64,000 nt of DNA, from assembly GCF_041929205.1 (NCBI RefSeq), contig NZ_JBHFNT010000303.1. One strand, 5' to 3'. A program made the position numbers and the translations under genes. The stretch's first letter is position 1. Each line of letters begins with the position of its first letter. The notes beneath the pieces are model-generated. The model saw only the letters and a list, made by a program, of their open reading frames with translations. It searched no databases and was not told the origin of the DNA. Positions 1-44,422 of this stretch are shown here, one piece after another. Source of the stretch: Floridaenema evergladense BLCC-F167. Its GTDB lineage: Bacteria; Cyanobacteriota; Cyanobacteriia; Cyanobacteriales; Aerosakkonemataceae.

Positions 1-182
1 TGATTGATTTGGACGTGGTGCCGCAGGTGTTGGATGAGGAGATGGTGTTGACGTTTTAAGCCCCATGATCCTACCTTTGCGAGGAATTCTTTACATTTCT
101 TTACATCGTGTCCTATTTTGCGCGTATCTCGGCTTTACCCCAAGGTGGCACTTAATTGAGGAAAGCATCGCCAGCCTGAAAA

Positions 183-200
183 TGTGCGCCATGGCGCACA
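183..200. repeat. 18-bp perfect palindrome TGTGCGCCATGGCGCACA (copy 1 of 3)
   Basis: Exact string match. The other copies are at 32415-32432 and 36972-36989. Confidence 0.8.
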
Positions 201-254
201 ATTCTACTGAGTTTCATAAATTACTCTCAAAGTTTAAGTAGAAAATCTTCATTG

Positions 255-758
255 TCAGACAACTACCTGCTGCCGTATCATCACCTGCTCTCGAATCGCA
301 GAAGCAGCTGCGGTGGCGATCGCCTCCCAATCCGATTCAGTTAGAATTGAGCGTAACAGAAAACGTAGTTCGGAACGCTCATTTTCCGATATCCTTGGCT
401 GTGCTGCTAGCTCTTGAGAGTACATTGCCAATAGTCGTTCTTGAACTTCTGGAGAAGGAGCGAGTAACCGCTGCAAAAGCAACTGTCTGCCACAATCTAC
501 TGCTGCTTCCATTCCTGCACCTAAATTCCAAGAAGCCAGTAGCTTAATAAACTCACTGATAATGACGGAACGCAACTCGAAGAAGTCAGCGAATCCAGAT
601 GGATTTTGGAGAAATTCTCCTAAGTTCGCTCCTAATTCAAAACCTGCTCCAATATCACATCCCGCCTCTTCCTCAATGCGAACTGCTTCCCTGACCCATT
701 CTTCATCCAGCATCAGTTGCATCAAATCAACCACTGTTTCTTCTGTTTGCTTTTCCAT
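255..758 (-). CDS. hypothetical protein (167 aa)
   Basis: Clean 167-aa ORF with no overlapping competitor. No motif I recognise. Acidic and Leu-rich. Confidence 0.3.
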   Translation of the reverse strand: MEKQTEETVVDLMQLMLDEEWVREAVRIEEEAGCDIGAGFELGANLGEFLQNPSGFADFFELRSVIISEFIKLLASWNLGAGMEAAVDCGRQLLLQRLLAPSPEVQERLLAMYSQELAAQPRISENERSELRFLLRSILTESDWEAIATAAASAIREQVMIRQQVVV

Positions 759-765
759 TTCTGTC

Positions 766-972
766 TTAGTTTAAGCTGCTTGTACCTTCACCATCTTTAG
801 TCCTTTTCAGTCGGTAGCGATATAGCGGTGAAGAGTGAATTTGTTCATCAAGTTGGGCAATTAAACTATCTAAAACTAAAATCTCTGCATCGGCTCTATT
901 GCAGATTTCCTTCATCTTGGCTGAAGTCTGCTTAACTGTTTCTAGATTGGGTAGCTTCGGTTCCTGAGTCAT
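766..972 (-). CDS. small hypothetical protein (68 aa)
   Basis: Short ORF co-directional with and immediately downstream of the 255-758 and 1037-2338 ORFs. No recognisable motif. Confidence 0.2.
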   Translation of the reverse strand: MTQEPKLPNLETVKQTSAKMKEICNRADAEILVLDSLIAQLDEQIHSSPLYRYRLKRTKDGEGTSSLN

Positions 973-1036
973 AGTAGGTTAATGGCAACTAGCATATCGT
1001 TATTGAAACGCTTGATTAATTCTTTGGTGAATGCGG

Positions 1037-2338
1037 CTATAGCATAGAAAGAGAGCGAATAACTTTTACTGCTTCACGAGTACTAATATCATTACGGCAT
1101 TCTTTAATTGGCTGGGAATTTCGTTCTCCATAGTAAGACTGGCGGACAAAACCTGCTCCTATAAAACGGTAGAAGGGGCCATTCCCCGCCCAGTCCATAT
1201 ACATATCCGCTTCTGGAAAATTTTGCCGCATTTCTGAATCTTGATAATGCCCGTAATACAGTGTCGTCTGACCAAAAAGCTGGGTATTCACTGTAATCTG
1301 ATTTTCTCGTTCAGGAATTCCCCCAATACCCCCGTATGTACCCTCAATTTTCTGCTCCAGCAAATAAGTTTTACGATATCTCTGTTTAGCCATTCGTCTA
1401 GCTTCTTTGGTTGTCCAAGGCTTAACAGGAAGCAAATCGGGTTGGACTTCTAATAAGTCTAAATAAGATCGATCGCCCGTCACTTCCCAGATTACCTGTG
1501 CTATAAATTTACAACAACTTAACGGTGCTTGCACTACCTGTTTTTCTGTGAACCGTACCACAATCCAACCCCACTCATTAAACAATTGATTGCGACGGAA
1601 ATCGCTATCTTCATCCCAGCAGTGTGTCGGTTTCAAAGACAAGCCAGCATAAGGCTCATCCACTTCCACATCAATACCAATACCTGAGATATTATGGACA
1701 ATAGTAAAGTCTGCCGAATAAGACTTCTTTGACATCGGAATCTTGAACTGAACACCCTGTACTGTGCTAGGAAAATAGCATTGTAAGTATCGCATAAATT
1801 CTTCTTCGCTCACCCCTTGCCGTGCTTGAGAATGACCGATTGGGTTAACTCGATTTGACATCAAATCTGATAGCAATTGACAACGTGATTTAAGATTAGT
1901 TAATAATTTTTGGGCTTTAATTTCAGGTGGATGCTCGGAAATTATCTGCTGTTTTTGATACGTTGCCAACTTTATTTGGTATTCGGACATTTGTTGTCGA
2001 TACTGCGAAAGCAGCTTAGTACGATAACTCAGTAAATATGTGTAAGCAGCTGCTATCAAACAAGAATAAGCACTGACAAGTAACAGCAATTCTATCCACG
2101 ACCAACCCCAAGAAACAGCCAGTAACGGAAGTGCGATCGCACCACCCAACCACAATAGCCAAATTAAACCAAACCATTCGACAGATGGCACTATTAATAA
2201 GTTCGGTAACTGTGGTTTTGTAACAGATGAAGAATTATCAGAAACAACTGTTATCTGATTGTCTCTAAACAAGTTTAAAGGATATTTACGGCAGAAATTT
2301 GTTACCGCTTCTGGATAAAACACCATCGGATAATTCAT
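1037..2338 (-). CDS. membrane-anchored protein with DUF559/Vsr-like PD-(D/E)xK nuclease-fold domain
   Basis: 433-aa ORF. The N-terminus has hydrophobic helices (WFGLIWLLWLGGAIALPLLAVSWGWSWIELLLLVSAY...). A coiled-coil linker follows. The central segment ADFTIVHNISGIGIDVEVDEPY...DSDFRRNQLFNEWGWIVVRFTEKQV fits the DUF559/Vsr pattern (DF...IEVDG..H....D..R...L...G..V.RF...V) as I remember it. A C-terminal domain of about 110 aa is unassigned. Confidence 0.45.
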   Translation of the reverse strand: MNYPMVFYPEAVTNFCRKYPLNLFRDNQITVVSDNSSSVTKPQLPNLLIVPSVEWFGLIWLLWLGGAIALPLLAVSWGWSWIELLLLVSAYSCLIAAAYTYLLSYRTKLLSQYRQQMSEYQIKLATYQKQQIISEHPPEIKAQKLLTNLKSRCQLLSDLMSNRVNPIGHSQARQGVSEEEFMRYLQCYFPSTVQGVQFKIPMSKKSYSADFTIVHNISGIGIDVEVDEPYAGLSLKPTHCWDEDSDFRRNQLFNEWGWIVVRFTEKQVVQAPLSCCKFIAQVIWEVTGDRSYLDLLEVQPDLLPVKPWTTKEARRMAKQRYRKTYLLEQKIEGTYGGIGGIPERENQITVNTQLFGQTTLYYGHYQDSEMRQNFPEADMYMDWAGNGPFYRFIGAGFVRQSYYGERNSQPIKECRNDISTREAVKVIRSLSML

Positions 2339-2569: not shown

Positions 2570-3208
2570 ATGAACTTAGCCACTCAATCTTTAGCTCATA
2601 CATCAATTACGGCAGCCCAACTTTGGCATCAATTAGAAATTGCCGAAACAACTGAAGAAATTGATCGCTTATTCCAATCAATTTGGCACAATCAAGAAAA
2701 ACAAGAAATTGCCATTGATGCTCATGCCGAACTTGCCAACCAAATTGATGCCGAAATTATAGCAATTAAAGCGAGAATGGAATTTCTAGTCCAATTGCAT
2801 CAAAGTGCGATCGATAAATTGGAAGGTTGGCGAGAGCGATTAGACCAAACTGTTATTTATTTTAATCAGATTGGAGCAATTACAGCCGAAATTGTTGGTA
2901 AACAGCATCGAATTACTGTCAAAGAAAACCCACCGACTTGTGAAGTATCTATCGACCCTTCTCAACTCCCAGACCAATATCGCCGTGTCGAAACTAAAAC
3001 CATAATTTCGGCTGACAAAAAGGCAATTACTGATGCTTGGAAGCAAGGAATACCTGTAGAAGGTACAAAAGTTTATCGTAGGCGTAAAGTAATTTATAGC
3101 TTACTACCAAGCAATTTACCTCAATACCAAGCTAGCACAATAGTCAATGTTGAACCATTAGAAAATCAGCCACAACCTACCAAAAAGCGACGTAAAAAAG
3201 CTGATTGA
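2570..3208 (+). CDS. Siphovirus Gp157-family protein
   Basis: 212 aa. An N-terminal coiled-coil is followed by ...HRITVKENPPTCEVSIDPSQLPDQYRRVETKTIISADKKAITDAWKQGIPVEGTKV. This matches the remembered Gp157 pattern (sv-K-PPsVeIiDe..IP.e...vpa.kqiDKkai...lKaG..vpGa.l). The gene ends in a basic KKRRKK tail. Confidence 0.5.
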   Translation: MNLATQSLAHTSITAAQLWHQLEIAETTEEIDRLFQSIWHNQEKQEIAIDAHAELANQIDAEIIAIKARMEFLVQLHQSAIDKLEGWRERLDQTVIYFNQIGAITAEIVGKQHRITVKENPPTCEVSIDPSQLPDQYRRVETKTIISADKKAITDAWKQGIPVEGTKVYRRRKVIYSLLPSNLPQYQASTIVNVEPLENQPQPTKKRRKKAD

Positions 3209-3259: not shown

Positions 3260-3460
3260 CTAGAGATTAATCCAATAGTGAGGGTCATCCACTTGCTCAG
3301 GGGTAATATCAAACAGTTTTGATAATAGATGTTTCCTTTGTTTAAGGATGCTATCTTCCTCATATTCAGTCAAATCAGCAATTAAATTAACCTCCACATC
3401 CAAATCAAACAGAAATGTTGTTTCCCTTTTAATTGCATTTTCAGTACCAACTATTTTCAC
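3260..3460 (-). CDS. small hypothetical protein (66 aa)
   Basis: Isolated short ORF in an otherwise non-coding gap. No motif. Confidence 0.15.
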   Translation of the reverse strand: MKIVGTENAIKRETTFLFDLDVEVNLIADLTEYEEDSILKQRKHLLSKLFDITPEQVDDPHYWINL

Positions 3461-3537: not shown

Positions 3538-3553
3538 CCCTCCAATTGGAGGG
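3538..3553. repeat. 16-bp perfect palindrome CCCTCCAATTGGAGGG (copy 1 of 3)
   Basis: Read directly from the sequence. It lies 85 bp upstream of the 3638 ORF start. Copies 2 and 3 are at 7123-7138 and 9277-9292. Confidence 0.8.
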
Positions 3554-3637: not shown

Positions 3638-6600
3638 ATGAAAAAGATAGCGTTTTCTACTGCAACTTATCACTCTACTGAATTAGCGAAAGGAGAGGGT
3701 CTTAAAATCCCTGTATTTGATATGTCGCTGACCGACGGTAAAACGAAAGGTCGCTATCAAGCTGAACCGGAAGTGTTGAGAAACTCAATGCTTGAACTGC
3801 TATTTGAACCATCTGAATTGAAATCGCTTGTGATTGTTAAACCCGACCCCGATGATAACAGTCACGACCCTCTCAAAAATATTGATTTTGGTGATGATAT
3901 TCCTAGAAGAGCTGCTTTCAGTTCTGGTAAAAATGTCTACTTTGCCGACCAACAACTTTCAACTAAACTATTAAGTATCTTTGCCACTCAACCCGACCAC
4001 GCCTGTCGTTATGGCTCTCTACTAGTCAGCAGTTGTACTCAAGGAGCGCAACTTTTAGATAGTTCCGCAGATGGTCAAGCATTGAAAGTTAAAATTGTTG
4101 ACTCTCAAAGCGATAATCCCAAAAAAAAAGCGTTAGCTAAAAAATGGCAAACTGGAGACTGTCATGGCAAAATCTCACCCGCTTTAGCTCAACAACTTGG
4201 AGGAATTCATAACCGACCTTTCCAATTTCGTATGGCATGGATGAAACAGTGGTCGCAGGAAGATTGTCCAACTCCAGAGATTAGCTTCTTAGCTAAAGGA
4301 ACCTTGCTACCTGATGCTCAATTAACTGATAATTCCGGCTATGATATCATTTTAGACCGCTCTTCTATCAAAGGAGTTGCTCGCGACCAACTTGCTTCTT
4401 TAATTCCTTGCGGTGATTACGAATTTCCCCAAATTGTTTTAGGAAATCGTGGTAATGCTAAAACAACCGAGTACGAAAATTCTTGGCAATTCTCGATTTG
4501 GTACTCAGAATCAGCCATTGAAGCTGACATCGTTCCTGCTACTAAAGCCGAGGCTCAAAAATTAGCAAGTTTACAAAATAATCGCATACAACTTGCTAAA
4601 TACTTAGTTGAACAACATGACAAAAAAGCAGCTTTCCGACAGACCACAGATGACACAGAAACCTCATTAAACGAACTAAGCGACGAGCAAACTAAACGCC
4701 ACGAATCTCGCCTTATCTCTATTCTCAGAAATGACAAATTGGGTCAATTACTAGACTTTCCCAAAGTTGTTGACTTCATGCAAGAACAACTTGCTAGAAA
4801 ATGGAAAGATTTAGCTATCAAAGGTGCCATTCATCATGGTTCCGCAATGGCTCAACCTGGTGAAGATTTGTTACCAGGAACGATTGTTGCACCTCATTTA
4901 CGACATGGAACGGAAGTTATCGTTACTCGCTACCCAATTGTTAGTAAAGACAACATTCGTCGCTACACAGTTAACAACAAACAAAAACCCGAACTCATGC
5001 AGTACAAAGGCTGTGTCTTCATTCGTCCCGACCAAGCTATGCAGCATCACCAATGCGATTTTGATGGCGACCAATTGGTAATTACACCTGCTTCCAGACT
5101 ACCTCACATTGCCAAAGAAACCCTTCATGCTAATGATGAAAATCAATACGAAGCTATCGAAAAACGCCCGAAAATTGATTACACTCAAGCTACTGACGAA
5201 GATGGTAAGCGTAAGTATACCAAACTCAGACAGATTGCTGTAGCGATCGCTAAAAACAAAATCGGCTGGGTAGCCACTTTGATTGGACGAGTACAATCTT
5301 CTGCACCAGAAGCAGGACAACCAGAGGCTTTATTCAATCAACGGAAACAGAAACTACTGGGTAAGTTATTCGATGCACTTCAAATCGAAGTCGATAGCCC
5401 TAAAAGTGCTACTAGGCTAGAAGACCACCATCCTAATCTACTAGAAACAGCTTCCAAGTGGTCTCAACAACATCCTTGCCACCTGTTCGATTTTAAAGAC
5501 GACCTCAGACTTTACAAAAGCGTACCGCTACCTACAGAAGATGGTACAGCAATTAGCGCGATCGCAAAAGTTGCTGTCAATCCAGCTTGGGAACCGACTC
5601 GTCTCAAGAGTCGCCATCGTGATGAATTTCGTTACCTTTTTAGTCCACCATCAGATTTAGACGAACGAGAAACTTGGGAGAAACATTACATAAATTGGGC
5701 GCAAGATGTCAAAGAACGTTATCGAGAAAGGATGGGCGAAATCTATGAGTTACATGGTGATAATCCTAGCAATTTAAAAGAGGCGGTTAGCAAATTGTAT
5801 GAGAGTTTGAGAAGCGATGTTGCAGAAACTTTTCCCAATCTAAGAGAACGCTTTTTAGCAGCCAGTGCGATGTGGCATTTAGAAACTACCAATCCTAATT
5901 TAGACGTTCCACGTAAAGCTGGTAAAGAACTTTCTCGCCAGCTTGAGATTGAATTTCATCTAGAATCGGATTACCAACAATTACACTCAGCATTACCTAA
6001 AGATACCTACATTCTTAGCGTTCCCTTTGAGGAATTTGTCAAAGACGATAAAGGTAAAATTGTCACAGACAAGCAACGAAAACCAGTCGTTCAAGATTTA
6101 GCTAAACAGTGGAAAGAGAGGCTAGATAGCAAAAACATTCAATACGAAGCTACATTGCATCCTAGTTTACCGATGGTCAACTTTGCTTTACTTGACCCTA
6201 GCGATAAGTTAATCGAAATTCTGGAAAAACGGTGTGGTAATAACATAAATGACATCGATAACTTGGACTTAACTTACCGTGATGGTTTAGGTCGGATTCA
6301 AGATATTAGTTCGCGGATTGTTGCACCTACCGAGTATACCTGGCTGGAGTCTCAACATCAAACACCTAAAGCAGCATTAGTGCTTAACTTGTTTACAGAT
6401 GAAATCTGTCAGCAATTACAAAACTTTCAATTTGACCGCGCCGAATTGATTGGACAGAAACACAATGATTGCAAAGATATTGATTTTAGCAATCGAGAAT
6501 GGAAAGGTCGAAAATTAACTTTTTCAGTTGGTTCCTTTAAGAGTTCTGACTTAAGGTATAACGGTAGTCCTATCGTCCTTCTTGATGGGAAACAATTAGC

Positions 6601-7090
6601 AATGTTTTCCGCTAATTCGCCAAAACTACCAATTGATGCTACCTTCGAGGCGACTATTGAACCTTCCTCAAAAGGCAGTAGCTTGCTGTTGAATATCGAC
6701 CCCAAATCCGTACAATTAATGCAGACAGTTGAACCAGAAATCCCAAATGAAGTAACTGCTAATGACGTAAAAAATGAGCAGGGTCAACTAGATTCTTTGG
6801 GTTTTTCGCAATTACTTAAAGAGGCGATTTACGACCTTTACAAACAAACCGGAGAAACTGAGTTTGTCATGGGTGATTGGAGCGTGAAAATTAGGAAAGT
6901 TCGTAACAATCTTAGATGTTGGGTTAACGATAAAAATGATAGTTCCGTTTTTGCGGCTGATTTGAAAACTGGCAGAATTATTAAGGAACTTTCACCAAGC
7001 AACTGCGATAAATTACTGGCACAAGTTTTTGAACCTACTCTCGAACCTAACAAACCAGAAACACCAGAAATGGCACAATCACAAGTTTAA
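3638..7090 (+). CDS. RdRP-like (eukaryotic-type cellular RNA-dependent RNA polymerase / two-barrel RNAP family) protein
   Basis: 1150-aa ORF. Four collinear motifs match the RDR/QDE-1 family as I recall it: GDCHGKIS (aa ~173-180), FQFRMAWMKQ (~195-204, cf. FQIRYGGYKG), VIVTRYPIVSKDNIRRYTV (~426-444, cf. V.VT+NPClHPGD+RvL.AV) and CVFIRPDQ..QCDFDGDQLVITP (~459-483). The DFDGD is encoded at nt 5057-5071 (cf. SGSDLDGDxYFV and RNAP beta-prime NADFDGDQM). A C-terminal half of about 650 aa is unassigned. Confidence 0.55.
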   Translation: MKKIAFSTATYHSTELAKGEGLKIPVFDMSLTDGKTKGRYQAEPEVLRNSMLELLFEPSELKSLVIVKPDPDDNSHDPLKNIDFGDDIPRRAAFSSGKNVYFADQQLSTKLLSIFATQPDHACRYGSLLVSSCTQGAQLLDSSADGQALKVKIVDSQSDNPKKKALAKKWQTGDCHGKISPALAQQLGGIHNRPFQFRMAWMKQWSQEDCPTPEISFLAKGTLLPDAQLTDNSGYDIILDRSSIKGVARDQLASLIPCGDYEFPQIVLGNRGNAKTTEYENSWQFSIWYSESAIEADIVPATKAEAQKLASLQNNRIQLAKYLVEQHDKKAAFRQTTDDTETSLNELSDEQTKRHESRLISILRNDKLGQLLDFPKVVDFMQEQLARKWKDLAIKGAIHHGSAMAQPGEDLLPGTIVAPHLRHGTEVIVTRYPIVSKDNIRRYTVNNKQKPELMQYKGCVFIRPDQAMQHHQCDFDGDQLVITPASRLPHIAKETLHANDENQYEAIEKRPKIDYTQATDEDGKRKYTKLRQIAVAIAKNKIGWVATLIGRVQSSAPEAGQPEALFNQRKQKLLGKLFDALQIEVDSPKSATRLEDHHPNLLETASKWSQQHPCHLFDFKDDLRLYKSVPLPTEDGTAISAIAKVAVNPAWEPTRLKSRHRDEFRYLFSPPSDLDERETWEKHYINWAQDVKERYRERMGEIYELHGDNPSNLKEAVSKLYESLRSDVAETFPNLRERFLAASAMWHLETTNPNLDVPRKAGKELSRQLEIEFHLESDYQQLHSALPKDTYILSVPFEEFVKDDKGKIVTDKQRKPVVQDLAKQWKERLDSKNIQYEATLHPSLPMVNFALLDPSDKLIEILEKRCGNNINDIDNLDLTYRDGLGRIQDISSRIVAPTEYTWLESQHQTPKAALVLNLFTDEICQQLQNFQFDRAELIGQKHNDCKDIDFSNREWKGRKLTFSVGSFKSSDLRYNGSPIVLLDGKQLAMFSANSPKLPIDATFEATIEPSSKGSSLLLNIDPKSVQLMQTVEPEIPNEVTANDVKNEQGQLDSLGFSQLLKEAIYDLYKQTGETEFVMGDWSVKIRKVRNNLRCWVNDKNDSSVFAADLKTGRIIKELSPSNCDKLLAQVFEPTLEPNKPETPEMAQSQV

Positions 7091-7122: not shown

Positions 7123-7138
7123 CCCTCCAATTGGAGGG
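7123..7138. terminator. palindrome CCCTCCAATTGGAGGG (copy 2), likely intrinsic terminator
   Basis: It lies 33 bp after the stop of the 3638-7090 ORF. The GC stem is followed by the T-run GGGGGTTATTTTTCT. Confidence 0.5.
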
Positions 7139-9276: not shown

Positions 9277-9292
9277 CCCTCTAATTGGAGGG
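9277..9292. repeat. palindrome CCCTCTAATTGGAGGG (copy 3, one mismatch, stem extended by 1 bp)
   Basis: It starts 9 bp after the stop of the 7169-9268 ORF. Confidence 0.7.
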
Positions 9293-9390: not shown

Positions 9391-10005
9391 ATGACAGTTT
9401 ACCAAAATTCTTGCCAGAGCCGACGCAAAAAGCTCTTATTCAATCGCTGGTTAACTCAACATCAAATCAACCTTGGCGATTTACTATTTATTGCTATTTG
9501 CATAGCAGTATTAATTTACTTTACCATCCGTCAACCTTTTTTCATCACAACATTAGGTTGCTCTAGCCTTGTATTTCTCAGCTTATGGCATATCGTTAGA
9601 GCGATTCCAATTGTAGAACAATATATCGGTAGCAAAATTCGCTTTTGGCACGTTACCACTGCTATTATTACTGCCACTGCATTATGTTCTGTACTTGATT
9701 CTCCAGCTAATGCCATCTTTCTTTCAGGTTTAGAAGTATTTATGCAACAACTAGCGCAAGGCGCGGCGGCGGCGGGAGGTCAACCGATTTCTACTGAAGT
9801 GATTACGTTGATTTTCAACTTAATTCGAGGCGCTTTTCTTTTGCTAGTAGCTGCTGCTTCATTGTTCGCTTATAACCAAGCACAGCAAGGGAATGATTGG
9901 CGACCAATTGTAACTCAAGTAGCACTGGCTTTTTCCATTGTAATTGCCATTGATGTTGTTACCTTTTTATTCGTTGGTAATGGTACTGGTGTTACTGGAG
10001 GCTAG
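9391..10005 (+). CDS. polytopic membrane protein, possible T4SS pilin (VirB2/TrbC-like) or VirB3-like
   Basis: 204 aa with about 4 hydrophobic helices and a central Ala/Gly-rich stretch. It lies immediately upstream of the VirB4-like ATPase. Confidence 0.3.
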   Translation: MTVYQNSCQSRRKKLLFNRWLTQHQINLGDLLFIAICIAVLIYFTIRQPFFITTLGCSSLVFLSLWHIVRAIPIVEQYIGSKIRFWHVTTAIITATALCSVLDSPANAIFLSGLEVFMQQLAQGAAAAGGQPISTEVITLIFNLIRGAFLLLVAAASLFAYNQAQQGNDWRPIVTQVALAFSIVIAIDVVTFLFVGNGTGVTGG

Positions 10006-16100: not shown

Positions 16101-17639
16101 ATGAATCGACAAGTTAGTTCCACTCCTGCTTCTGAGTTGTCCGAGGATATCGACTTCAATGACTTTGCTGATTTCAATCCTCATTTGCCACTGTCATTAG
16201 AAGCTCAATATCAACTTACACAAGATGAGGAAAAACCCCAACCTCCTCCTGTTGCTCAACGAGGTATCCCTCGAATGGTAGCAATGCTTTTATTAACAGG
16301 GGGAGTGATTATAGTGGGATTGTCAATTTGGCAGTTTGTTAAACCGAAATCAGATACCAAACCACCCGTTCCAACAACAGCCCAAAAAACTAAGGAACCC
16401 CTGCTAAAAGATGAAAAGCCTGAACTGCTGGCGAGATTGGCTTACGTTGACCAACAAAAACTAATCGCCCAAACTCCTAAAAGTAACGAGCCAACCCAGA
16501 GAGAACCAAAACCATCACCTACACCAAAAGCAACGCCTAAACCAACTCCTCATCGGGTAGTTGAACGACCTCCTGCTCCCCGTATAGTGGCGACTCGTCC
16601 TCCAGTACGTCCCACAGCACCTCCCCCGACTCCTAGAACCATAGTCCGAACTGTTACAGTTCCTGCACCTGCACCTAAACCTGCACCTACACTTACTTCA
16701 ACTCCTGAAAAGCTCAATCCGTTCGAGCGGTGGAATCAGTTAGCTCAACTAGGTCAAACCAGGGGGAACGTTGAAGTTGAAACAGAGAAGTCCCCAGTTA
16801 CTCAGAACTTGCCCATCCCAACTAAAGATAATTCTGCTAATCAGGACAGCAAACTGCTTACAGTTAATATTGGTAAGGAGCAACCACCAGAAACACCATT
16901 GGCATCCCGTCAGCTTTCCTCCGGTACTATCGGTATTCTCAACCGCACGCCTCAACCTCTAACAACTTCAAACACTTTACAGATTGCACTCGGAACCATT
17001 ACTAAAGGTACTGTATCAGTTCCCTTACTTTGGGACACTGGTAGTGGCGAACAGCTTTATAACCGATTTGCCATTACCTTAACCGAAGATGTTTTAGCCA
17101 CTAATGGTTCGGTTGCCTTGAACAAAGGAACTGTGATTATTGCTCAAGCCAATCATGTCGGTAAAAAGAATCTCATGGTACAAGCCAGCGCCATTGCCAT
17201 TGTCTACACCGACGAATCGGGAAAAGTTAAGCAGCAAGAAATACCCTCCGGTGCAATTTTGATTGCAGGTGAAGATGGTACGCCGTTGATTGCCAAAGGT
17301 CATCTCGATTCTGGTGATGATATTGCCAAGCAGGATTTGTTTGTCGGACTGCTTTCCGGGATTGGACGAGTTGGAGAAGTGTTTACACAACCGAGAACTA
17401 CAAGTAGCACTAGCATCAACAGTGGTGGTTTTAACAGAGACACCATCACTGTAGAAAACCGGGAACCACAAATTTGGTCGGCTGTCCTCGATGGCTTTTT
17501 CAGTCCTTTAGCGAAACGACTGGAAAGACGCTCGCAGCGAGCAGTTGAAGAACTCTTAAGCCGTCCCAATATTGCTATGGTTCCCAAAGGTACTAAAGTT
17601 TCCGTTACAGTCAATAGTTTCCTCACCATTAGCCGATAA
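16101..17639 (+). CDS. VirB10/TrbI-like T4SS protein
   Basis: 512 aa. The layout is cytoplasmic N-terminus, single TM (MVAMLLLTGGVIIVGLSIW), a long proline-rich linker (PTPKATPKPTPHRVVERPPAPRIVATRPPVRPTAPPPTPR...), then a C-terminal beta-rich domain. This is the canonical VirB10 architecture. Confidence 0.5.
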   Translation: MNRQVSSTPASELSEDIDFNDFADFNPHLPLSLEAQYQLTQDEEKPQPPPVAQRGIPRMVAMLLLTGGVIIVGLSIWQFVKPKSDTKPPVPTTAQKTKEPLLKDEKPELLARLAYVDQQKLIAQTPKSNEPTQREPKPSPTPKATPKPTPHRVVERPPAPRIVATRPPVRPTAPPPTPRTIVRTVTVPAPAPKPAPTLTSTPEKLNPFERWNQLAQLGQTRGNVEVETEKSPVTQNLPIPTKDNSANQDSKLLTVNIGKEQPPETPLASRQLSSGTIGILNRTPQPLTTSNTLQIALGTITKGTVSVPLLWDTGSGEQLYNRFAITLTEDVLATNGSVALNKGTVIIAQANHVGKKNLMVQASAIAIVYTDESGKVKQQEIPSGAILIAGEDGTPLIAKGHLDSGDDIAKQDLFVGLLSGIGRVGEVFTQPRTTSSTSINSGGFNRDTITVENREPQIWSAVLDGFFSPLAKRLERRSQRAVEELLSRPNIAMVPKGTKVSVTVNSFLTISR

Positions 17640-26667: not shown

Positions 26668-27255
26668 TTAACCAGGAGAAACTATTGCTTTTACCTGAGC
26701 GACAGAATTTTGTTGTAATGCACGAACAGCGAGATCCTCACAAGCAGCTACACTTAATTGGGAAATCGCCTGTTTAATTACCGGGATAGCTGGAGGATTA
26801 ACACTCAACTTATCGATTCCCAAACCTAACAAAATTGCTGTAGCGGCAGGCTCGGCAGCTAGTTCACCACATAAACTCACCCAGATTCCCGCCCGATGAG
26901 CAGCTTGAACTGTTTGCTGCACCATGAGTAACACAGCTGGGTGCATCGCATCAGCCAAAGCAGCTACTTGTGGGTGAGTGCGATCGCTAGCCATCACATA
27001 CTGACTCAAATCATTAGTCCCAATACAAAAAAAGTCTACCTCCGCTGCTAAGCGCGAGGCAAGCACCACTGCTGAAGGTACTTCGATCATAATTCCCAAA
27101 GAAATCGTTCCCGCAACCGGAATATTCGGTTGACGCAGTTCCGACTGCACTTCCGAAAGGATTCCTTTGGCAGCTTTAACTTCCTCTAGAGGGGCAATTC
27201 CCATACTACGCCCATTCATGTTCACTCGTCTGCACAAATCTGCTATTTGTGACAA
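26668..27255 (-). pseudogene. C-terminal fragment of a PEP-utilizing enzyme (PtsI-like TIM-barrel domain), N-terminally truncated
   Basis: GIMIEVPSAVVLASRLAAEVDFFCIGTNDLSQYVMASDR...CGELAAEPAATAILLGLGID matches the Enzyme I C-terminal domain (FFSIGTNDLTQY). At 195 aa it is far shorter than a full ~570-aa enzyme, and no upstream domains are present. Confidence 0.5.
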
Positions 27256-27268
27256 ATCATATCCTTGC

Positions 27269-28725
27269 TCAGATGCGGCACCACAAATTTTCTCTGCCAG
27301 TAGCTAATTGACCTTCAATTCTTGCCGCTTCTGCTTTTGCTCTCGCTGCTGCGGTAGCTTGACCTGTAGTTTCGATCGCAGAGTTTTCCGCTTGCAATTC
27401 TAACAGATTTCTCCGTTCCGCTTCGGCTGCACCTTTATCAACAATTGCCTGTCTTTCTAACCTAGATTTTGCTTCTTGTTCGATCCGTTCGGCATCATGT
27501 CTAGCAGCAGCTTCTTGGGCATCAGTAGTAATTTGAATCGCAATTTGTACCGACTTTTGCAAACTTTTCAAAGTTTCTTCATCTACTGGTTCTACTGATT
27601 GAATATCAACGTTAAAAATTACCAAATTATTGGTTCTAAAACGGAATTCTTCCCGCACTCGACCTTCGGTATCTGTACCAAATACAGCAGTACGAATAAT
27701 CCGAGCAGAATTGCGGTGAAACTCGTCAAATTTTACACTGGCTACTGCACCCCGAACGCGAGATGCGATCGCTTTACAAGCAGTATCTACAAAATCAGGT
27801 ACTTGGAAAAGTTTTGCCGCTGCTTGTTCATCATCTCGATTAACATCAAAATACCAATTATAAGACAAACGTAACTGAAGTCTGGCATGATCTGATGTTT
27901 CAACTGTGAACAAATCAGTCATAAAATCTGGGCCTAATAATAAGGCCAAAGACTTGATTATATGAGGTCTTTTTGGTACGCTACCGGATAAACTCAACAC
28001 CGTAAAAGCTTCATCTGGCCCCAGCATTACTAAGTCTGGGCCAAATACAGTTCTGGCGGTTCTTTCCTTATAATCATGTATTTGCACGGCGGCATTTTGG
28101 GGAACATGAAAAACCACAGCCCTTGTTTTATTTCGTTCGCTTCTTGTCTCAGATTTCGAGGGAATTTCTGATATTTGATTTTGCCGATCGCCACCTTTGT
28201 TAGTATGATGTCGCCCCCTTTCCGAAACCGGATCGTTTTTAATTGCTAATAGTTCTTCCACAATTGGTGGCAATTCTTTTTCCCACAGTTCTTCATAAGG
28301 ACTGAGCATATAAGCTTGCGGGCCACTAACAACTTTCACTTCACCTGTTTGAATATCTCTAATATAAATTCCTTCATTCTTATCCAGAGGAATTGCTTGA
28401 CGTTTTTCAACTACTTCTACTTGCACAGGAGGGATATAATCTCTTGGCCCTGCAATCATCCACATATCCCCTGGTTGACGTTGAATTAATATCGAGGTGG
28501 TACAATAATCATCGGTTCCGGTTTTAATATTAACCGTTCGTGATCGCGCAAAGTAATAGTTTGTGGGCCAACTTCCAGTCTAGTCACCCCTGTATTGTTA
28601 TCTAAAACGTGAATAAATTGCTGAGGTTTTAAGCGAATTATGCCGCTAGCAATTCCTGGTAATTCGGATTTATTTTCTGTAGTGCGATCGCTTATATTCA
28701 TAGCCATCTTTTCCAAGTAATTCAA
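27269..28725 (-). pseudogene. major vault protein (MVP)-like gene, fragmented and truncated
   Basis: Fragment 28486-28725 ([29 protein letters not shown]...IIVPPRY) resembles MVP repeat 1. A TAA stop and +1 frameshift follow. Fragment 27269-28465 aligns by recollection with MVP repeat 8, the shoulder and the start of the cap-helix ([22 protein letters not shown]..., [48 protein letters not shown]). Repeats 2-7 and the distal cap-helix/C-terminus are absent. Confidence 0.55.
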
Positions 28726-32304: not shown

Positions 32305-33327
32305 ACCTTATAAGCTTGTTGGTGCTGGTGGTAATCCAGAACTGATTTTGGAGAGATGAGTAATCTAGGTACTCAATAAACAGTGAGGTCTTATGTGGCA
32401 TAGTCTTTAATTTTGTGCGCCATGGCGCACAAATTCAAGGATGCAGAATTTTTTAGCTCTTTTAGATTAGCAGCCCCCTGTTCACAGACATTTGACAGTC
32501 CTTGGATCATAATGATCATAATGATCAGATTTGTGAACAAAAATGGAACCCTTACTGAATAAAGGTTTAAGACGACGAAAAAATATTTTTGGGTAAGCCG
32601 AGGGGTATTTCTGGGTAAGCCGAGGGGTATTTTTCTGTGTACAGGCTGAATATTAGTATTGGCAAGGGTTTGGGACTTTTGGTTAACTCAAGGGGTATTA
32701 TTGTTCACTAACTCTTAATGAAGCTAAAATGCAAGTGGATAAGGCTTTTCAGATGTTCTAGTTCAGATTGAGTTTCCTGTTCACAAGGAGTCATTAGATA
32801 CGCCTCATTCAGTGCAAAGAGTACCTGATTCATACAAGTCTCATCTCATTGCTCGCTATGTTTATCCAACTAACGCAGTACTGCCTAAGTTCAGTCTCGC
32901 AAAACAGTCTTGAGGAACTGAAGCAGCGAAGCTCACTACTTCAGTTCACCCGCGACAGATTGCCAATCTGGAACTGATTTTAACTGCTTCAGGTCAGGTT
33001 CAGTCCTTTCGATATAAGCAAGTAAGATTGTCGGAAGCTGGATGCGATGAAAGTTGCACATCCAGATTTAACAGAGAGGGGCGAGGGGTATTGACTGCTC
33101 CTCAATTCCTGTCTCAAATTACTTAAACTTGCTCATTCATTCAGCTAGAACCAGCAAATGAGCAAGTTTAACCTAAACACGAAACTAAGAAAGCGGTAAA
33201 AACAAATGATTAATTCATTAGCTTTTTAAATAGCTCAATAACTGAATTAAATTATTATTTAAAGTTTTTAAAGGTCGGGATTAAATATGTTAGAATTAAC
33301 CAATATACATATTAAGTAATTGCTTAA
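32305..33327. promoter_or_regulatory. non-coding region with iteron-like direct repeats and palindromes; putative replication origin / rep promoter
   Basis: About 1 kb has no convincing ORF. It contains the 22-bp palindrome TTTGTGCGCCATGGCGCACAAA (32412-32433). GATCATAAT is tandemly repeated 2.6 times (32505-32528), flanked by inverted TGTTCACA/TGTGAACA. The 20-mer GGGTAAGCCGAGGGGTATTT is repeated in tandem (32591-32610, 32613-32632). GAGGGGTATT cores recur at 32691 and 33082. CCTGTTCACA recurs at 32776. Confidence 0.35.
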
Positions 33328-34548
33328 ATGCTGAAAAGTTTTAAGACAAAGCTAAACCTAAATAACCAGCAAAGAACATTAGCTTCTCAACACGCAGGGG
33401 TTTCTCGTCACGCTTGGAATTGGGGTTTAAATGTTTGTCTTACAGCAAAAGATGCTCAGGAAAAGCGACCAAGTGCTATTGACTTACATAAGCGATTAGT
33501 AGCAGAAGTTAAATCAGTTAATCCTTGGTATTATCAAGTTTCCAAATGCGCTCCTCAACAAGCGTTAAGATATTTAGATGAAGCATTTAAACGTTGTTTT
33601 AAAGTTCCGGGGACTCGTCAACCTAAGTTTAAAAAGAAAAATATTAAAGACAGTTTCTATCTAGAAGGAAATATTAAGATTTCTGGCAATCAGATCAAAA
33701 TCCCTAAGTTTGGCTGGGTTAAATGTTATGAAATCCTCCCAACAGTTCAACCTAAAAATGTCACCATTTCCAAAAAAGCAAATGATTGGTATATCAGCTT
33801 TAGATACGAGTTAGAGCCATCGCCAATTCGCCATACTAGAAAGCGGATCGGAGTTGACGTAGGAATTAATGCTCTGGCTACTTGTTCGGATGGTACAGTT
33901 TTTCCTAACCGGAAAGCTTATCGAAAGGCTAAAAGAAAGTTAGCTCATCTGCAACGGTCTTTCTGTCGTAAGCAACTCGGTTCAAAAAACCGCGCCAAAG
34001 CAAATCTAAAGGTAGCTAGATTGCATAGAAAAGTTGCTAACATCAGACAAGACGCATTGCACAAACTAACAACTTGGCTAGCTAAAAACCACAGCGAAAT
34101 TGTGATAGAGAATTTAAACGTCTCTGGAATGCTAAGAAATCATAGATTGGCTAGTGCTCTTGCTGATTGTGGATTCTATGAATTTAAAAGGCAACTTGAA
34201 TATAAAGCTAGTTGGTATGGTTCAACAGTAATTAGAGTTGACAGGTTTTACCCAAGCTCGCAACTTTGTAGTTGTTGTCATCATCGTCAAAAAATGCCAC
34301 TCTCAAAAAGAATTTTTAAGTGTGGCAATTGTGGGATGGAGTTAGATAGAGATTTGAATGCCAGTATTAATTTAGAAAATTGGCACGCCATTATTGAATT
34401 TCCAACAACCGTTAGCTCAACGGGGATTGCTTGTGGAGAGTTAAGTAAACTTAATGGTTCAACTGTTAAGGATTCGATGAAGCAAGAAGAAAACGTTAAA
34501 TTTACTTGGTTTGCAGCTTCGTTCTGTGACCAAAGTAAGTTTGAGTAA
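33328..34548 (+). CDS. tnpB: IS200/IS605-family accessory protein TnpB (OrfB, RuvC-like + zinc finger)
   Basis: 406 aa. Typical TnpB N-terminus ...NQQRTLASQHAGVSRHAWNWGL.... The RuvC-like core is IGVDVGINALATCSDG. The C-terminal zinc finger is CSCCHHRQKMPLSKRIFKCGNCGMELDRDLNASINL. No tnpA is adjacent. Confidence 0.85.
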   Translation: MLKSFKTKLNLNNQQRTLASQHAGVSRHAWNWGLNVCLTAKDAQEKRPSAIDLHKRLVAEVKSVNPWYYQVSKCAPQQALRYLDEAFKRCFKVPGTRQPKFKKKNIKDSFYLEGNIKISGNQIKIPKFGWVKCYEILPTVQPKNVTISKKANDWYISFRYELEPSPIRHTRKRIGVDVGINALATCSDGTVFPNRKAYRKAKRKLAHLQRSFCRKQLGSKNRAKANLKVARLHRKVANIRQDALHKLTTWLAKNHSEIVIENLNVSGMLRNHRLASALADCGFYEFKRQLEYKASWYGSTVIRVDRFYPSSQLCSCCHHRQKMPLSKRIFKCGNCGMELDRDLNASINLENWHAIIEFPTTVSSTGIACGELSKLNGSTVKDSMKQEENVKFTWFAASFCDQSKFE

Positions 34549-41073: not shown

Positions 41074-41805
41074 TTGAATCCAATGATGGGAAATCTTAAA
41101 CAATATCAACTGCCAGTAAAAGTAGGAGATTGCCTTGATTACTTACGTTCGCTCCAGCTGCAAACAATTTTACTAGAGCTTTACGGGCAACTTTTTCCCA
41201 TCCAATGGAGCAATTCTACTATCCCATTGTTCCAACAATCTCATCCCACAGTATACACAGACCGAGAAATCGAATTTTTGCAACTGCTTAATACTTGGTT
41301 TCCCATTGAATATTACGAAGAATTGGAAACAATTGAGGAAAGATATACAGAAATTTATCTGTATCCACAAAACATTAGTTGGTGGAATCAAACATTCGAG
41401 GAACTCAGTCAAGTAGAACAATTTATCATCAGTTTACTAGATTGGGGATACGAGCGGGAAAAATGGGAATCGGTTTTTGGTTTTAGCTCTACTTACACTG
41501 CTAAACCAGAAGAAATTAACTGGGAAAAGTTAGAACGATTATGCCAAACAAAAAAACCGCCATTACAATACTTCAGCAACGTAATTAGCATCATCGACCA
41601 TAGTTCAGACTGCATTTGGCTAGACCTGACTGATGAAAGTTATGAATCCTTGGCTTGGAGTAAAGAGAATATCATTTACCTAAAAAGCCAATGGGGAAAA
41701 GCACTTGAATTACAGCAGCAAATGGCAGAATTTTCAGTTTGGTTTGAAACGAAAGTCGAACACAAAAAAGCCGCCTTAAAACTGTGGAACCAATCTAAAA
41801 AATGA
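41074..41805 (+). CDS. acidic alpha-helical protein, candidate 6E-like component of the Ubl-conjugation operon
   Basis: 243 aa, Glu-rich helical (EIEFLQLL..EYYEELETIEERYTEIY..). It overlaps the E2-like gene start (ATGA), so it sits in an operon with the E2/JAB/E1 genes. Confidence 0.3.
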   Translation: MNPMMGNLKQYQLPVKVGDCLDYLRSLQLQTILLELYGQLFPIQWSNSTIPLFQQSHPTVYTDREIEFLQLLNTWFPIEYYEELETIEERYTEIYLYPQNISWWNQTFEELSQVEQFIISLLDWGYEREKWESVFGFSSTYTAKPEEINWEKLERLCQTKKPPLQYFSNVISIIDHSSDCIWLDLTDESYESLAWSKENIIYLKSQWGKALELQQQMAEFSVWFETKVEHKKAALKLWNQSKK

Positions 41806-42488
41806 ACGTACCATTACCACCTCTAAACATTGGAAAACTGGTGCAAACGATTGTTCCTCAAACCGAGTTGGGTGAAGTACAAGCCCAACTCTTATTTTTG
41901 TCGGGACAGTACGTTTTGATTTACAAAGAACAGGAAAAAACCCATTGTAAATTTGTATCACCAGCCGCAATAGCAAGAGCTTTTACCAATACAGTAATTG
42001 ATTCGGGTTGGCTTGATTGTCATACCGTCCGCTGGGGACATGGTTTATCTGGGGAATGGATAGTGCAGTACTACCCACCGCAGCAGTATCAAATTCTGTG
42101 TGAAAACAATGAATGGCGAATTCCCCTACCTGCCTTCGTATTTATAGGCTATCGGACTAGGTACTGGATTTGGGCATCGAAAACTAAACAGTTTGACCCG
42201 AATGCGGCTTTGTACGCCGCACCTCTACCTAATGTTTATGGTGATGGTGCAATTTGCTTTGGCGAACTGCATCCACCTGATTGTACGCCAAGCCAAATCG
42301 GAGTAGCCTGGAAAATATTTTGGCAGAGTAATTTCAGCAACCATCTAATTCAAGGTAAATCAAAGCACTACCCTCAAGACGTGCTTAAGCAATTAATGCA
42401 GGTGAAAAACAAACGAATTTATCCCAGCAAAGACTTAGTGATTTTCAACAAATCCCTCGACGTTATTTGCCAAGGCATTATCAGATGA
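41802..42488 (+). CDS. prokaryotic E2-like (UBC-fold) protein
   Basis: PLPNVYGDGAICFGELHPPD matches the E2 active-site signature HPN(I/V)...G.IC...L. The catalytic Cys is at nt 42255-42257. 228 aa. Confidence 0.55.
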   Translation: MNVPLPPLNIGKLVQTIVPQTELGEVQAQLLFLSGQYVLIYKEQEKTHCKFVSPAAIARAFTNTVIDSGWLDCHTVRWGHGLSGEWIVQYYPPQQYQILCENNEWRIPLPAFVFIGYRTRYWIWASKTKQFDPNAALYAAPLPNVYGDGAICFGELHPPDCTPSQIGVAWKIFWQSNFSNHLIQGKSKHYPQDVLKQLMQVKNKRIYPSKDLVIFNKSLDVICQGIIR

Positions 42489-43228
42489 AAATTCCTCAAT
42501 TTGTAGAGTATAAAACGGCTTTTGATGCAAGTTTACCACCAATAACTGCTAGCGCACTCGAATATTGGTTATCCAGAAATGGCGTATTTATTCGAGCACA
42601 GCGACAAGGATTAAAAGCTTGTTTCCCCATCGCTAACTGTCGCATTGCTTCCTTGGCAGTAATAGAACCTTATTTTCAGATGGAATACCCTCGCGTACCG
42701 TTGGAAATAACCAAATTGATGTGGTTACTTAGTGAGTCAGCAGGCGAAAATGAAATACTTTTTCACCTATCCTTTGAAACCGGAGGTTGGCATTTAGAAA
42801 TTCCCGCCCAAATTGCTACACCAACGAGCGTTACACCTTTAATCAGTTCGGTTAATTCATCTTATGAAACAGCATTGATTGAAGTGCATTCTCATGCCAA
42901 CATGAGTAGTGAATTTTCGGAAGCAGATAATCGAGAAGAAACTGGATTTAGAATTTTTGCCATTCTAGGTAAGCTGAGAAGCCAACCGGAAATTAATACT
43001 CGAAGTGACGTTCTCTCCCGCCCGAGCTTGCGCTATAACGGGAGCTTCTCACTTCAGAATAAAGATAGCTGTACGCCATCCCCACCTGAGAAAGCTTCAC
43101 ACTTCACAGGCTGGGTATCCCCTAAGCCTCTGTGTGCAGACAAGATGAGTCCCACCTCGTTTAATGCTCGTTCTAATATATTTCGAGCGGCGTTTTCATC
43201 TCTATCCATTGCTAGGCCGCACTTATGA
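42467..43228 (+). CDS. JAB/MPN+ (JAMM) metalloprotease-domain protein; C-terminus probably disrupted by IS
   Basis: JAMM motif ...WHLEIP...IEVHSHANMSSEFSEAD (E ... HxH-x7-S-xx-D) at nt ~42885-42925. The ORF then runs into the 3' end region of the minus-strand tnpB (from ~42980). Its distal part is therefore probably IS-derived read-through. Confidence 0.5.
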   Translation: MPRHYQMKIPQFVEYKTAFDASLPPITASALEYWLSRNGVFIRAQRQGLKACFPIANCRIASLAVIEPYFQMEYPRVPLEITKLMWLLSESAGENEILFHLSFETGGWHLEIPAQIATPTSVTPLISSVNSSYETALIEVHSHANMSSEFSEADNREETGFRIFAILGKLRSQPEINTRSDVLSRPSLRYNGSFSLQNKDSCTPSPPEKASHFTGWVSPKPLCADKMSPTSFNARSNIFRAAFSSLSIARPHL

Positions 43229-44343
43229 CATTCGTGCAGGCGAATAGATAGAGTTTTCGGTACTTTTGCGCCACAACTTGAGCAATTTTGAGATGTTCCA
43301 TGAGGACTTACTTTTACAATTCGGACACCGCATTTAACTGCCACTGCGTCCAAAATGGTAATGAACCTCCCCCATGCTGCATCCAAAATTGATTTGCTCA
43401 ATCTTGTTCGAGCAAGCCCTTTGATGTTTAGATCTTCTACCGCAATTAAGTCATACCTTTTGACTAAATTGTGAGCGGTGTTATAGTGAAAGTTTTCCCT
43501 AATCCGACCAATTCTCTGATGAATTCTGGCTATCTTATTTTTCTGCTTGTTAGAGCGATTCGACCCCTTTTTTGACCTTGCTAACTTACGTTGTTGACGA
43601 GCCAAATGAGACTGAGTTTTGCGGTAGATTTGTTGAATGGGAACTGTCTCACCTTCAGAAGTGGTAAGAAATTCCTTGAGTCCCACATCAATGCCAATAA
43701 CTGTTTTCACCTCATCCAATGGCTTATGTTCGGGTACAGTTTCATCCTCCATAGAAATACAGCAGTACCACCCATCAGCTTTGCGAACAATGGTGCAAGT
43801 TTTTAGGGTAAATCCATCAGGAAGAGGACGATGTAAGATGACTAGCATCTCTCCTATCTTTGACAGTTTCAACACACCATTGTTAAGATGCGCTCCTGCT
43901 TTTGGACAATTTATTCGTGGGTAAACGAATGACCGCAACTCATCAACTTTTTTAAATTTGGGTCTACCACCTCGCTTGCCTGATTTATCAGGAAATAACC
44001 AACGCTCGATCGCCTTATTCAATCTTTGCAAATTAACTTGCTGTGACTCTGACCAAATATTTTTGTACTCAGGAAACAACACTTTAGTTTGCTTTAGATC
44101 CGACTGCTGCGTGTAGTAATTAACAGTTGCAGGTATCTCTCCGATTGGCTCATAAATTATACTGCAACGGTCAATTTGACATCTGGTTCGTCGTAGCCAA
44201 TCTAACCTCTGCTCCAGACAATAATTCCAATGCCGTCGAAGCAACTCTAATGTATGGAGCATAGTTGCTTCTTGTTTGGCATTGGGTTTAATTCGGTAGC
44301 AGTAAGTTAGAATCATAGCTGTTATTTTACAGCTTATCGCCAA
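43054..44343 (-). CDS. tnpB: IS200/IS605-family TnpB (OrfB)
   Basis: 429 aa. RuvC-like IGIDVGLKEFLTTSEG. Zinc finger CSSCGAKVPKTLSIRLHECHKCGLAMDRDENAARNI. No tnpA is present. Confidence 0.85.
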   Translation of the reverse strand: MAISCKITAMILTYCYRIKPNAKQEATMLHTLELLRRHWNYCLEQRLDWLRRTRCQIDRCSIIYEPIGEIPATVNYYTQQSDLKQTKVLFPEYKNIWSESQQVNLQRLNKAIERWLFPDKSGKRGGRPKFKKVDELRSFVYPRINCPKAGAHLNNGVLKLSKIGEMLVILHRPLPDGFTLKTCTIVRKADGWYCCISMEDETVPEHKPLDEVKTVIGIDVGLKEFLTTSEGETVPIQQIYRKTQSHLARQQRKLARSKKGSNRSNKQKNKIARIHQRIGRIRENFHYNTAHNLVKRYDLIAVEDLNIKGLARTRLSKSILDAAWGRFITILDAVAVKCGVRIVKVSPHGTSQNCSSCGAKVPKTLSIRLHECHKCGLAMDRDENAARNILERALNEVGLILSAHRGLGDTQPVKCEAFSGGDGVQLSLF

Positions 44344-44422
44344 TCATGACAATAATATACGATAAAGGATTCAGGTCTGTTTACTAGTCTACCGAAAACC
44401 TGTCTTCTGGACTGGCTCTACG

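Follow-up and report, generated by a model that had tools for sequence, protein, structure and literature searches.

Why does a cyanobacterium carry, beside genes for conjugation, a gene that resembles the polymerases of eukaryotic RNA interference (RNAi)? The question is raised by a 64,000-nucleotide (nt) stretch of Floridaenema evergladense BLCC-F167 (contig NZ_JBHFNT010000303.1, hereafter the window), in which one long open reading frame (ORF), here called the polymerase gene, lies close to components of a type IV secretion system (T4SS). Polymerases of bacterial mobile elements are regarded as the ancestors of the eukaryotic RNAi polymerase, and we know of no bacterial, non-phage member of that lineage that has been studied. 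An initial annotation of the window proposed that the gene encodes a two-barrel homologue of the eukaryotic-type RNA-dependent RNA polymerases (RdRPs) next to a T4SS, and our fold search, the Pfam scores of homologous proteins, and an alignment of the catalytic core agree in supporting this proposal.

The four collinear motifs on which the proposal was based are all present in the ORF where they had been placed (Table 1). The metal-binding loop DFDGD agrees to the nucleotide with its claimed position, and the distance from FQFR to VTR, given earlier as ~220 amino acids (aa), is about 232 aa. We scored residue conservation over 212 members of the polymerase family, down to about 25% identity, and found that D474, D476, G477, and D478 are invariant in all 207 sequences that are ungapped at these positions. 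K245 and P433 are each kept in 211 of the 212 members, D174 in 204, R198 in 203, Q196 in 201, and K220 in 196, with R431 and K178 also near-invariant. Since the aspartate triad and its glycine never vary and other core residues hardly do, we infer that the polymerase is under selection as an active enzyme. Judged from these conserved residues, the motifs are not a chance pattern, the active site is intact, and the protein is predicted to be catalytically competent.

At the level of whole-protein sequence comparison, the family assignment comes from the homologues. The query polymerase itself matches nothing in Pfam at E <= 1, and NCBIfam was likewise empty; a phmmer search of the full-length protein against the PDB returned only noise, and a full-length profile returned only apolipoprotein-like helical noise. 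The PHROGs scan yielded an uncharacterised family (E 1e-23) as well as PHROG 4291 (E 1.7e-7, aa 411-521), whose label is "RNA-dependent RNA polymerase." Searching 5.8 billion proteins provided 164 relatives, cyanobacterial wherever named, many of which carry a precomputed match to PF05183, the Pfam RdRP family. Among 32 diverse homologues, 16 match PF05183; for the five whose scores were checked, the bit scores run from 24.0 to 27.4 (gathering score 23.8) and the alignments cover profile positions 380-539 (294-539 in one case). One relative bears the UniRef label "RDRP core." In the Pfam test suggested by the initial annotation, half of these homologues match, and the query does not.

The predicted structure places the protein more precisely. 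An AlphaFold2 model built from 108 sequences reached a mean predicted local distance difference test (pLDDT) score of 88.9 and a predicted template modelling (pTM) score of 0.81, and a Foldseek search of the PDB put the Neurospora polymerase QDE-1 at the top (2j7n; ~900 columns with E 3.4e-14 and probability 1.0). RDR2 of maize and Arabidopsis came next (E 1e-13 to 4e-10; the QDE-1 and RDR2 alignments span roughly 850-900 columns), then the RNA polymerases (RNAPs) of Thermus phages, P32 gp64 and P74 gp62 (E 2e-9), whereas the beta' chains of multisubunit enzymes appeared below the single-subunit ones, at about 3e-4. This confident model, with QDE-1, RDR2, and phage two-barrel RNAPs at the top, is an outcome with which the proposal of the initial annotation withstands the refutation test that it had set for itself, and QDE-1 and the RDR enzymes are the closest structural relatives of the model. 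It contains two domains of the double-psi beta-barrel (DPBB) type that form a single active site.

Further analysis with a profile of the catalytic core, derived from 16 sequences down to 23% identity and searched against the PDB at E <= 10, revealed 21 matches, every one of them a two-barrel polymerase: P23-45 TMP-RNAP, RPA1, the Pol IV and Pol V largest subunits, beta', Rpo1N, RPC1, RDR2, and QDE-1. Each match is marginal alone (E 0.04-2.7), and their weight comes from unanimity and a common register, in which VIVTRYP...DFDGD falls on the "(L)NRxPxLH...NADFDGD" barrel of beta' and RPA1 and on the DxDGD of RDR2 and QDE-1. The equivalence with eukaryotic RDR motifs proposed initially is thus borne out residue by residue for VTRxP...DFDGD. 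A profile of the first barrel alone matched no sequence in the PDB, and the equivalence of GDCHGKIS and FQFR, which we take to correspond to the RDR motifs "DGxGxIS" and "FQxR," is backed by the fold match and not at the sequence level. Collectively, these results place the polymerase in the clade of the eukaryotic RNAi RdRPs (QDE-1 and RDR2) and the single-subunit RNAPs of phages and plasmids.

Domain boundaries, taken from the secondary structure of the model, are listed in Table 1. The near-invariant basic residues of the first barrel are K178, R198, K220, and K245, which are candidates for equivalence to the catalytic lysines. The helical region that follows the second barrel is, in the model, probably the counterpart of the bridge helix and clamp, with individual helices assigned by inference; its two conserved blocks presumably resemble those found downstream of DLDGD in RDR proteins. 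The C-terminal extension (~380 aa) is confidently folded in the model and matched no known fold.

We then assessed where the family occurs. A tblastn search of PLSDB located relatives on 89 plasmids, all cyanobacterial and 38 of them typed as conjugative, and every match is annotated as "hypothetical protein." A scan of one genome per species yielded 202 loci, 80 of which were retained; all 80 are cyanobacterial, and the closest (95% and 88% identity) come from [Phormidium] sp. LEGE 05292. In that strain, the Gp157 and polymerase genes are each present twice, in diverged form and on separate contigs (L005 and L006), which suggests two related plasmids in a single strain. When clustered at 50% identity, the relatives from an exhaustive hidden Markov model search form 456 clusters, of which 189 have E below 1e-30. 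By tblastn, 50,697 phage records contained no relative, and all annotated matches are plasmids; a phage origin of the polymerase was therefore rejected. The polymerase family is restricted to cyanobacteria and plasmid-borne across its subfamilies.

The setting of the gene differs among these subfamilies. In short forms (~790-885 aa), an HU gene follows the polymerase gene in two unrelated plasmids, one of which, a non-mobilisable plasmid of 51.6 kb, also has VapE-domain, integrase, and ParA genes beside it. The two loci, with polymerases of ~880 aa, are 1033-4236 of L088, a plasmid of Phormidium yuhuli, and 8632-12159 of L089, a plasmid of Anabaena sp. WA102. Further relatives are found near MobV and ParM genes, or near a methyltransferase and a giant helicase. 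Long relatives (2269-3337 aa) are fused to cpYpsA/YAcAr SLOG, DUF4326, and NADAR domains and are, by analogy, reminiscent of the "polyvalent proteins" of invading elements. The polymerase core is N-terminal in P0181 and P0248 and follows ~470 aa in P0257.

For the subfamily represented in the window, a comparison of the window proteins with 84 loci, 52 of which have at least 13 kb of downstream and 53 about 10 kb of upstream sequence, uncovered a conserved neighbourhood. Downstream, with strand and order unchanged, the acidic protein is present in 36 of 52 loci, the 204-aa membrane protein in 40 (median identity 63%), and the VirB4-like ATPase in 39. On the upstream side, Gp157 was found in 41 of 53 loci and a Prok-E2/PRTRC cassette in 22. 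The order polymerase, acidic protein, membrane protein, VirB4-like ATPase is common to Oscillatoriales, Nostocales, Pleurocapsales, and Leptolyngbya-like genera, and because it has been kept while the polymerase diverged to ~44% identity, the link between polymerase and T4SS is old. Two annotated examples, pOSC7112.02 and pANACY.01, are typed as MOBP/MPF_T conjugative plasmids. Both the conserved position and this typing locate the gene in the transfer region of conjugative elements. The polymerase gene is thus a backbone gene of cyanobacterial conjugative plasmids, situated between functions for DNA entry and establishment and the T4SS.

Table 1. Positions of the features discussed; nucleotides are numbered from the first letter of the window, residues from the start of the polymerase.
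Feature	Nucleotides	Residues	Strand	Basis or remark
Gp157-family gene (Mu Gam-like DNA-end protection)	2570..3208		+	Pfam PF05565, E 5e-11
Small divergent acidic ORF, 66 aa	3260..3460		-	tblastn matches at about -0.2 kb in ~14 close relatives
Hairpin copy 1, CCCTCC-AATT-GGAGGG	3538..3553		.	85 nt before polymerase start codon
Single-subunit two-barrel (RdRP/QDE-1/YonO-clade) polymerase gene	3638..7090		+	ATG start, uninterrupted, 1150 aa
N-terminal beta-rich domain	3662..4117	~9-160	+	Model secondary structure; conserved in subfamily
Barrel 1, beta-subunit-like DPBB	4145..4507	~170-290	+	GDCHGKIS, FQFR, AKGT, SSIKG
Motif GDCHGKIS	4154-4177	173-180	+	Direct reading of translation
Motif FQFRMAWMKQ	4220-4249	195-204	+	Direct reading of translation
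Helical connector with disordered acidic loop		~291-395	+	Model
Barrel 2, catalytic beta'-like DPBB	4823..5095	~396-486	+	VIVTRYP and DFDGD; PF05183, PHROG 4291, core profile
Motif VIVTRYPIVSKDNIRRYTV	4916-4972	427-445	+	Direct reading of translation
Motif CDFDGDQLV	5054-5080	473-481	+	Direct reading of translation
DFDGD Mg-binding loop	5057-5071	474-478	+	Inside CDFDGDQLV
Helical region	5096..5947	~487-770	+	Conserved NKIGxVAxxIGR and LQ(I/V)EVDSPKS blocks; within QDE-1 alignment extent
Subfamily-specific C-terminal extension	5948..7033	~771-1132	+	Three small alpha/beta or beta modules
Hairpin copy 2	7123..7138		.	33 nt past polymerase stop codon, then T-run
Acidic, partly disordered coiled-coil protein, 699 aa	7169..9268		+	17% D+E; Pfam coiled-coil noise only
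Hairpin copy 3, one mismatch (U-G wobble, + strand)	9277..9292		.	9 nt past 699-aa gene stop
Polytopic membrane protein, 204 aa, first T4SS-block gene	9391..10005		+	Hydrophobic segments
VirB4/TraC-like conjugative ATPase, 1078 aa	10102..13338		+	Pfam TraC_F_IV, E 3.7e-4
TrbI/VirB10-family T4SS protein	16101..17639		+	Pfam PF03743, E 9.7e-10, above cut-off
Probable CyRepA-type protein, 1055 aa	29137-32304		-	N-terminal DUF3854 (Toprim-related), weak primase PHROG match
PRTRC-like cassette	41074-45091		+	Sub-threshold PRTRC_B/Prok-E2_D, PRTRC_A, ThiF-family protein
PIF1/RecD-like helicase, DnaN-like clamp, tau/gamma-like clamp loader, delta subunit	47958-54361		+	

In the window, too, the neighbours named in the initial annotation (Gp157, the acidic protein, and a VirB-type T4SS) are real, as the Gp157, VirB4/TraC-like, and TrbI/VirB10 matches attest. 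The Gp157 protein also matches PHROG 253, "Mu Gam-like end protection" (E 1.1e-11), and the VirB4-like ATPase matches the TraC-F-type (E 2.8e-9) and VirB4_CagE (E 3.9e-5) models of NCBIfam, both under the family cut-offs. No family match was obtained for the 66-aa ORF at 3260-3460.

The remainder of the window encodes plasmid functions, including ParA and ParB. The 1055-aa DUF3854 protein is probably a CyRepA-type replication protein, a type that has been shown to replicate cyanobacterial plasmids (PMC10079941). The PRTRC-like cassette, apparently split by a TnpB (IS605 OrfB) insertion at 43054-44343 (-), lies 38 kb from the polymerase gene, as opposed to 4-8 kb upstream of it in many genomes. 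With ParA and ParB, the CyRepA-type protein, the PRTRC-like cassette, and the clamp genes, the window is part of a large plasmid or conjugative element. The window ORFs that were scanned include no recognised catalytic subunit of a DNA polymerase.

Other features of the window were observed as well. An ORF at 27269-28465 (-) strongly matches eukaryotic major vault protein (MVP) models (MVP_shoulder at E 1e-53, Vault_3, and Vault_4), and the adjoining ORF at 26668-27255 (-) holds a fragment-sized C-terminal domain of a PEP-utilising enzyme. A match to a group II intron catalytic domain in Rfam (33033-33112, +; 41.6 bits against a threshold of 40) is followed immediately by a TnpB/IS605 OrfB gene (33328-34548, +). 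Two adjacent transfer RNA genes occupy 54648-54796 (+); ARAGORN identifies one as Ala(CGC), and the second, whose CCA end is encoded, has an 8-nt anticodon loop, CTGAAAAT, in which the anticodon is the four-base "GAAA."

What might such an enzyme do for its plasmid? Conjugative elements deliver single-stranded DNA (ssDNA) that needs immediate priming and expression. The conjugative primases TraC1 and Sog are large products of transfer-region genes that accompany the DNA into the recipient, and the survey that describes them found Toprim and PrimPol primases but no barrel polymerases and noted that cyanobacteria are poor in such polyvalent proteins (PMC5512222). In phages, virion RNAPs do a comparable job. 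A primase role has been suggested for RdRP homologues of selfish elements and bacteria (PMC3417536), and QDE-1 has both DNA- and RNA-dependent activity (PMC9508822). Given the need of transferred ssDNA for priming, the DNA-templated activity of QDE-1, and the primase role proposed for homologues, we favour RNA synthesis linked to transfer. By analogy with these systems, the polymerase may use transferred plasmid DNA as a template for RNA that serves in priming and/or early transcription, a tentative reading whose chances we put slightly below even. The enzyme would copy DNA of its own plasmid into RNA in a way linked to conjugative transfer, its template would most likely be the single strand entering the recipient, and the RNA product would prime synthesis of the complementary strand and/or supply the first transcripts. 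A more specific version, in which this RdRP-type polymerase is a transfer-associated, possibly T4SS-translocated, ssDNA-templated RNAP that replaces a Toprim or PrimPol primase, is doubtful.

Several points weigh against transfer-linked RNA synthesis. T4SS genes are absent within 13 kb in 12 of the 52 loci, and the distant subfamilies lie beside HU, VapE, ParM, or MobV genes and not beside a T4SS. All two-barrel enzymes of prokaryotic mobile elements that have been characterised, namely YonO, gp64 and gp96 of P23-45, and crAss gp66, are promoter-directed transcriptases and not primases (PMC5467207, PMC10770324). In addition, we found no biochemistry or genetics on any member of the family in the literature consulted.

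The phage precedents lead to the main rival explanation, in which the polymerase is a promoter-directed, DNA-dependent RNAP that transcribes plasmid genes (those of the transfer operon, for example) without the host RNAP, either in the donor or once the plasmid is established. YonO transcribes the late genes of SPbeta and gp64 the early genes of P23-45 (PMC5467207, PMC10770324), the polymerase gene is co-directional with and just upstream of the T4SS genes, and its large extra domains could serve promoter recognition. A conserved GC-rich hairpin before three consecutive cistrons would be a possible recognition element. We consider this explanation unlikely overall.

The hairpin is a 16-nt palindrome, CCCTCCAATTGGAGGG, with copies at 3538 and 7123 (chance expectation 0) that bracket the polymerase gene just as the initial annotation had noted. 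About 30 Oscillatoriales loci (L001, L005-L040) have a CCCTCC/GGAGGG stem at the same three intergenic places, on either side of the polymerase gene and behind the gene for the acidic protein, with a 4-nt loop that varies (AATT, GATT, ATTT, or AAAT). Since the loop varies and the stem is kept, selection seems to act on the stem or its half-sites. Copy 2 is terminator-like, with a fold z-score of -3.3; copy 1, having a T-run before it and an A-run after it, is not terminator-shaped on either strand. We therefore rejected the hairpins as plain intrinsic terminators, an interpretation that fits copy 2 and, loosely, copy 3 but for which copy 1 is wrongly shaped. Loci of Nostocales and Pleurocapsales lack the hairpin upstream of the polymerase gene, and a universal recognition site was likewise rejected on account of its absence from other orders. 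Three roles are conceivable for the element: a hairpin for RNA 3' ends or RNA processing, an operator whose spacer varies, or a site recognised as a single strand; in the last case, the stem-loops upstream of the three cistrons could be sites at which the polymerase recognises single strands.

For promoter-directed transcription, then, the sole repeated intergenic motif in the first 21 kb is a hairpin limited to one order, two of whose three copies resemble ordinary 3'-end hairpins; positions 1-21000 hold no other repeated promoter-like intergenic motif and no Rfam match. The lack of any relative in the phage records also counts against this explanation.

A third explanation makes the polymerase a primase for vegetative replication in the resident host, working with plasmid helicases, so that its proximity to the T4SS would reflect only co-inheritance of backbone genes. 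The primase role proposed for selfish-element RdRP homologues (PMC3417536) would suit this explanation equally, as would the short relative on the 51.6-kb plasmid with its HU, VapE-domain, integrase, and ParA neighbours, another relative beside HU, and the clamp, clamp loader, and PIF1-like helicase encoded in the window. However, the window has its own DUF3854 replication protein of the CyRepA type plus a helicase (PMC10079941), and vegetative initiation is therefore probably the task of another gene. The clamp and helicase genes lie 40 kb off and co-occur with the polymerase within the flanks of only 1 of 84 loci, and the conserved partners in this subfamily are transfer genes. We regard vegetative priming as improbable.

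Could the enzyme instead be a true RNA-dependent RNAP, acting in RNA-based defence, anti-defence, or regulation in the manner of RNAi amplification? The RNAi RdRPs are its best relatives in sequence and fold, one PHROG relative is labelled as an RdRP, and clustered regularly interspaced short palindromic repeat (CRISPR) loci lie near the polymerase on some plasmids. That proximity is not conserved, however; no PADLOC model matches the polymerase or five neighbours, the conserved neighbourhood holds no Argonaute-, Dicer-, or RNase III-like partner, and the conserved partners serve DNA transfer, making such a role highly improbable. Lastly, a two-barrel DNA polymerase with PolD-like chemistry that would act together with the clamp and clamp loader of the plasmid, for which the DnaN-, tau-, and delta-like proteins without a polymerase catalytic subunit among the scanned ORFs might speak, has next to no likelihood, given structures much closer to RdRP and RNAP than to PolD, no synteny with the clamp genes, and no conserved clamp-binding motif on inspection by eye.

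The family itself is already known, and the gene is a new member of it. Firmicutes, cyanobacteria, and two Bacteroides were reported to contain about 50 YonO-like proteins by Ruprich-Robert and Thuriaux (2010, PMC2919709), who set the cyanobacterial ones apart as their own family. The same account is given by Forrest et al. (2017, PMC5467207), and in Aravind et al. (2012, PMC3417536) "cyanobacterial versions" are considered along with the primase hypothesis. The present gene almost certainly belongs to the same family as the cyanobacterial YonO-like and RdRP-like proteins of PMC2919709 and PMC3417536. The statement in the initial annotation that prokaryotic members are restricted to a few phage RNAPs was accordingly overstated, cyanobacterial members having been reported in 2010 and 2012. 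In the family literature consulted, we did not find the consistent plasmid location, the position at the head of the T4SS genes, the partnership with Gam-like and PRTRC proteins, or the C-terminal extension, parts of which Iyer and Aravind (J Struct Biol 2012) may cover.

With 456 clusters and at least 89 plasmids, the family is abundant, and its T4SS-linked subfamily offers a genetically tractable setting for determining the role of the enzyme. The polymerase may explain how cyanobacterial plasmids become established after transfer, a process relevant to gene flow, since these plasmids carry toxin and natural-product clusters, and to the building of cyanobacterial vectors. As a counterpart of the RNAi polymerase in bacteria, the family is tractable, and it possibly represents a new solution to priming or expression after transfer. 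If the polymerase does take the place of a Toprim or PrimPol primase in transfer, an enzyme of conjugation and establishment would be the sister group, in bacteria, of the eukaryotic RNAi polymerases, and the DNA-templated activity of QDE-1 would reflect that ancestry.

Comparison with known systems sets the polymerase apart in several respects. Its identity to Neurospora QDE-1 and plant RDR2 (PF05183) is 11-14%; unlike them, it is bacterial, plasmid-borne, below Pfam detection, and without nearby RNAi partners, and it carries the extra C-terminal extension of ~380 aa with no known fold. The phage single-subunit enzymes (YonO of SPbeta, gp64 of P23-45 and gp62 of P74-26, gp96, and gp66 of crAss phi14:2) are transcriptases with promoters (PMC5467207, PMC10770324), whereas the polymerase is plasmid-borne beside a T4SS and has no relative in phage records. 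TraC1 of RP4 and Sog of R64, about 1000-1250 aa in length and encoded by transfer-region genes, make RNA on the incoming single strand (PMC5512222); their folds are Toprim or archaeo-eukaryotic primase (AEP)/PrimPol, in contrast to the DPBB of the polymerase, so the likeness is one of analogy only. For the cyanobacterial YonO-like proteins, "main genomes" or unspecified selfish elements were given as the location and an RNase H fusion was mentioned that we did not find in this subfamily (PMC2919709, PMC3417536). With these proteins, the polymerase shares an occurrence in cyanobacteria only, a kinship with RdRPs confined to the bipartite barrel region, invariant residues near the catalytic metal, and a predicted role as a polymerase or primase.

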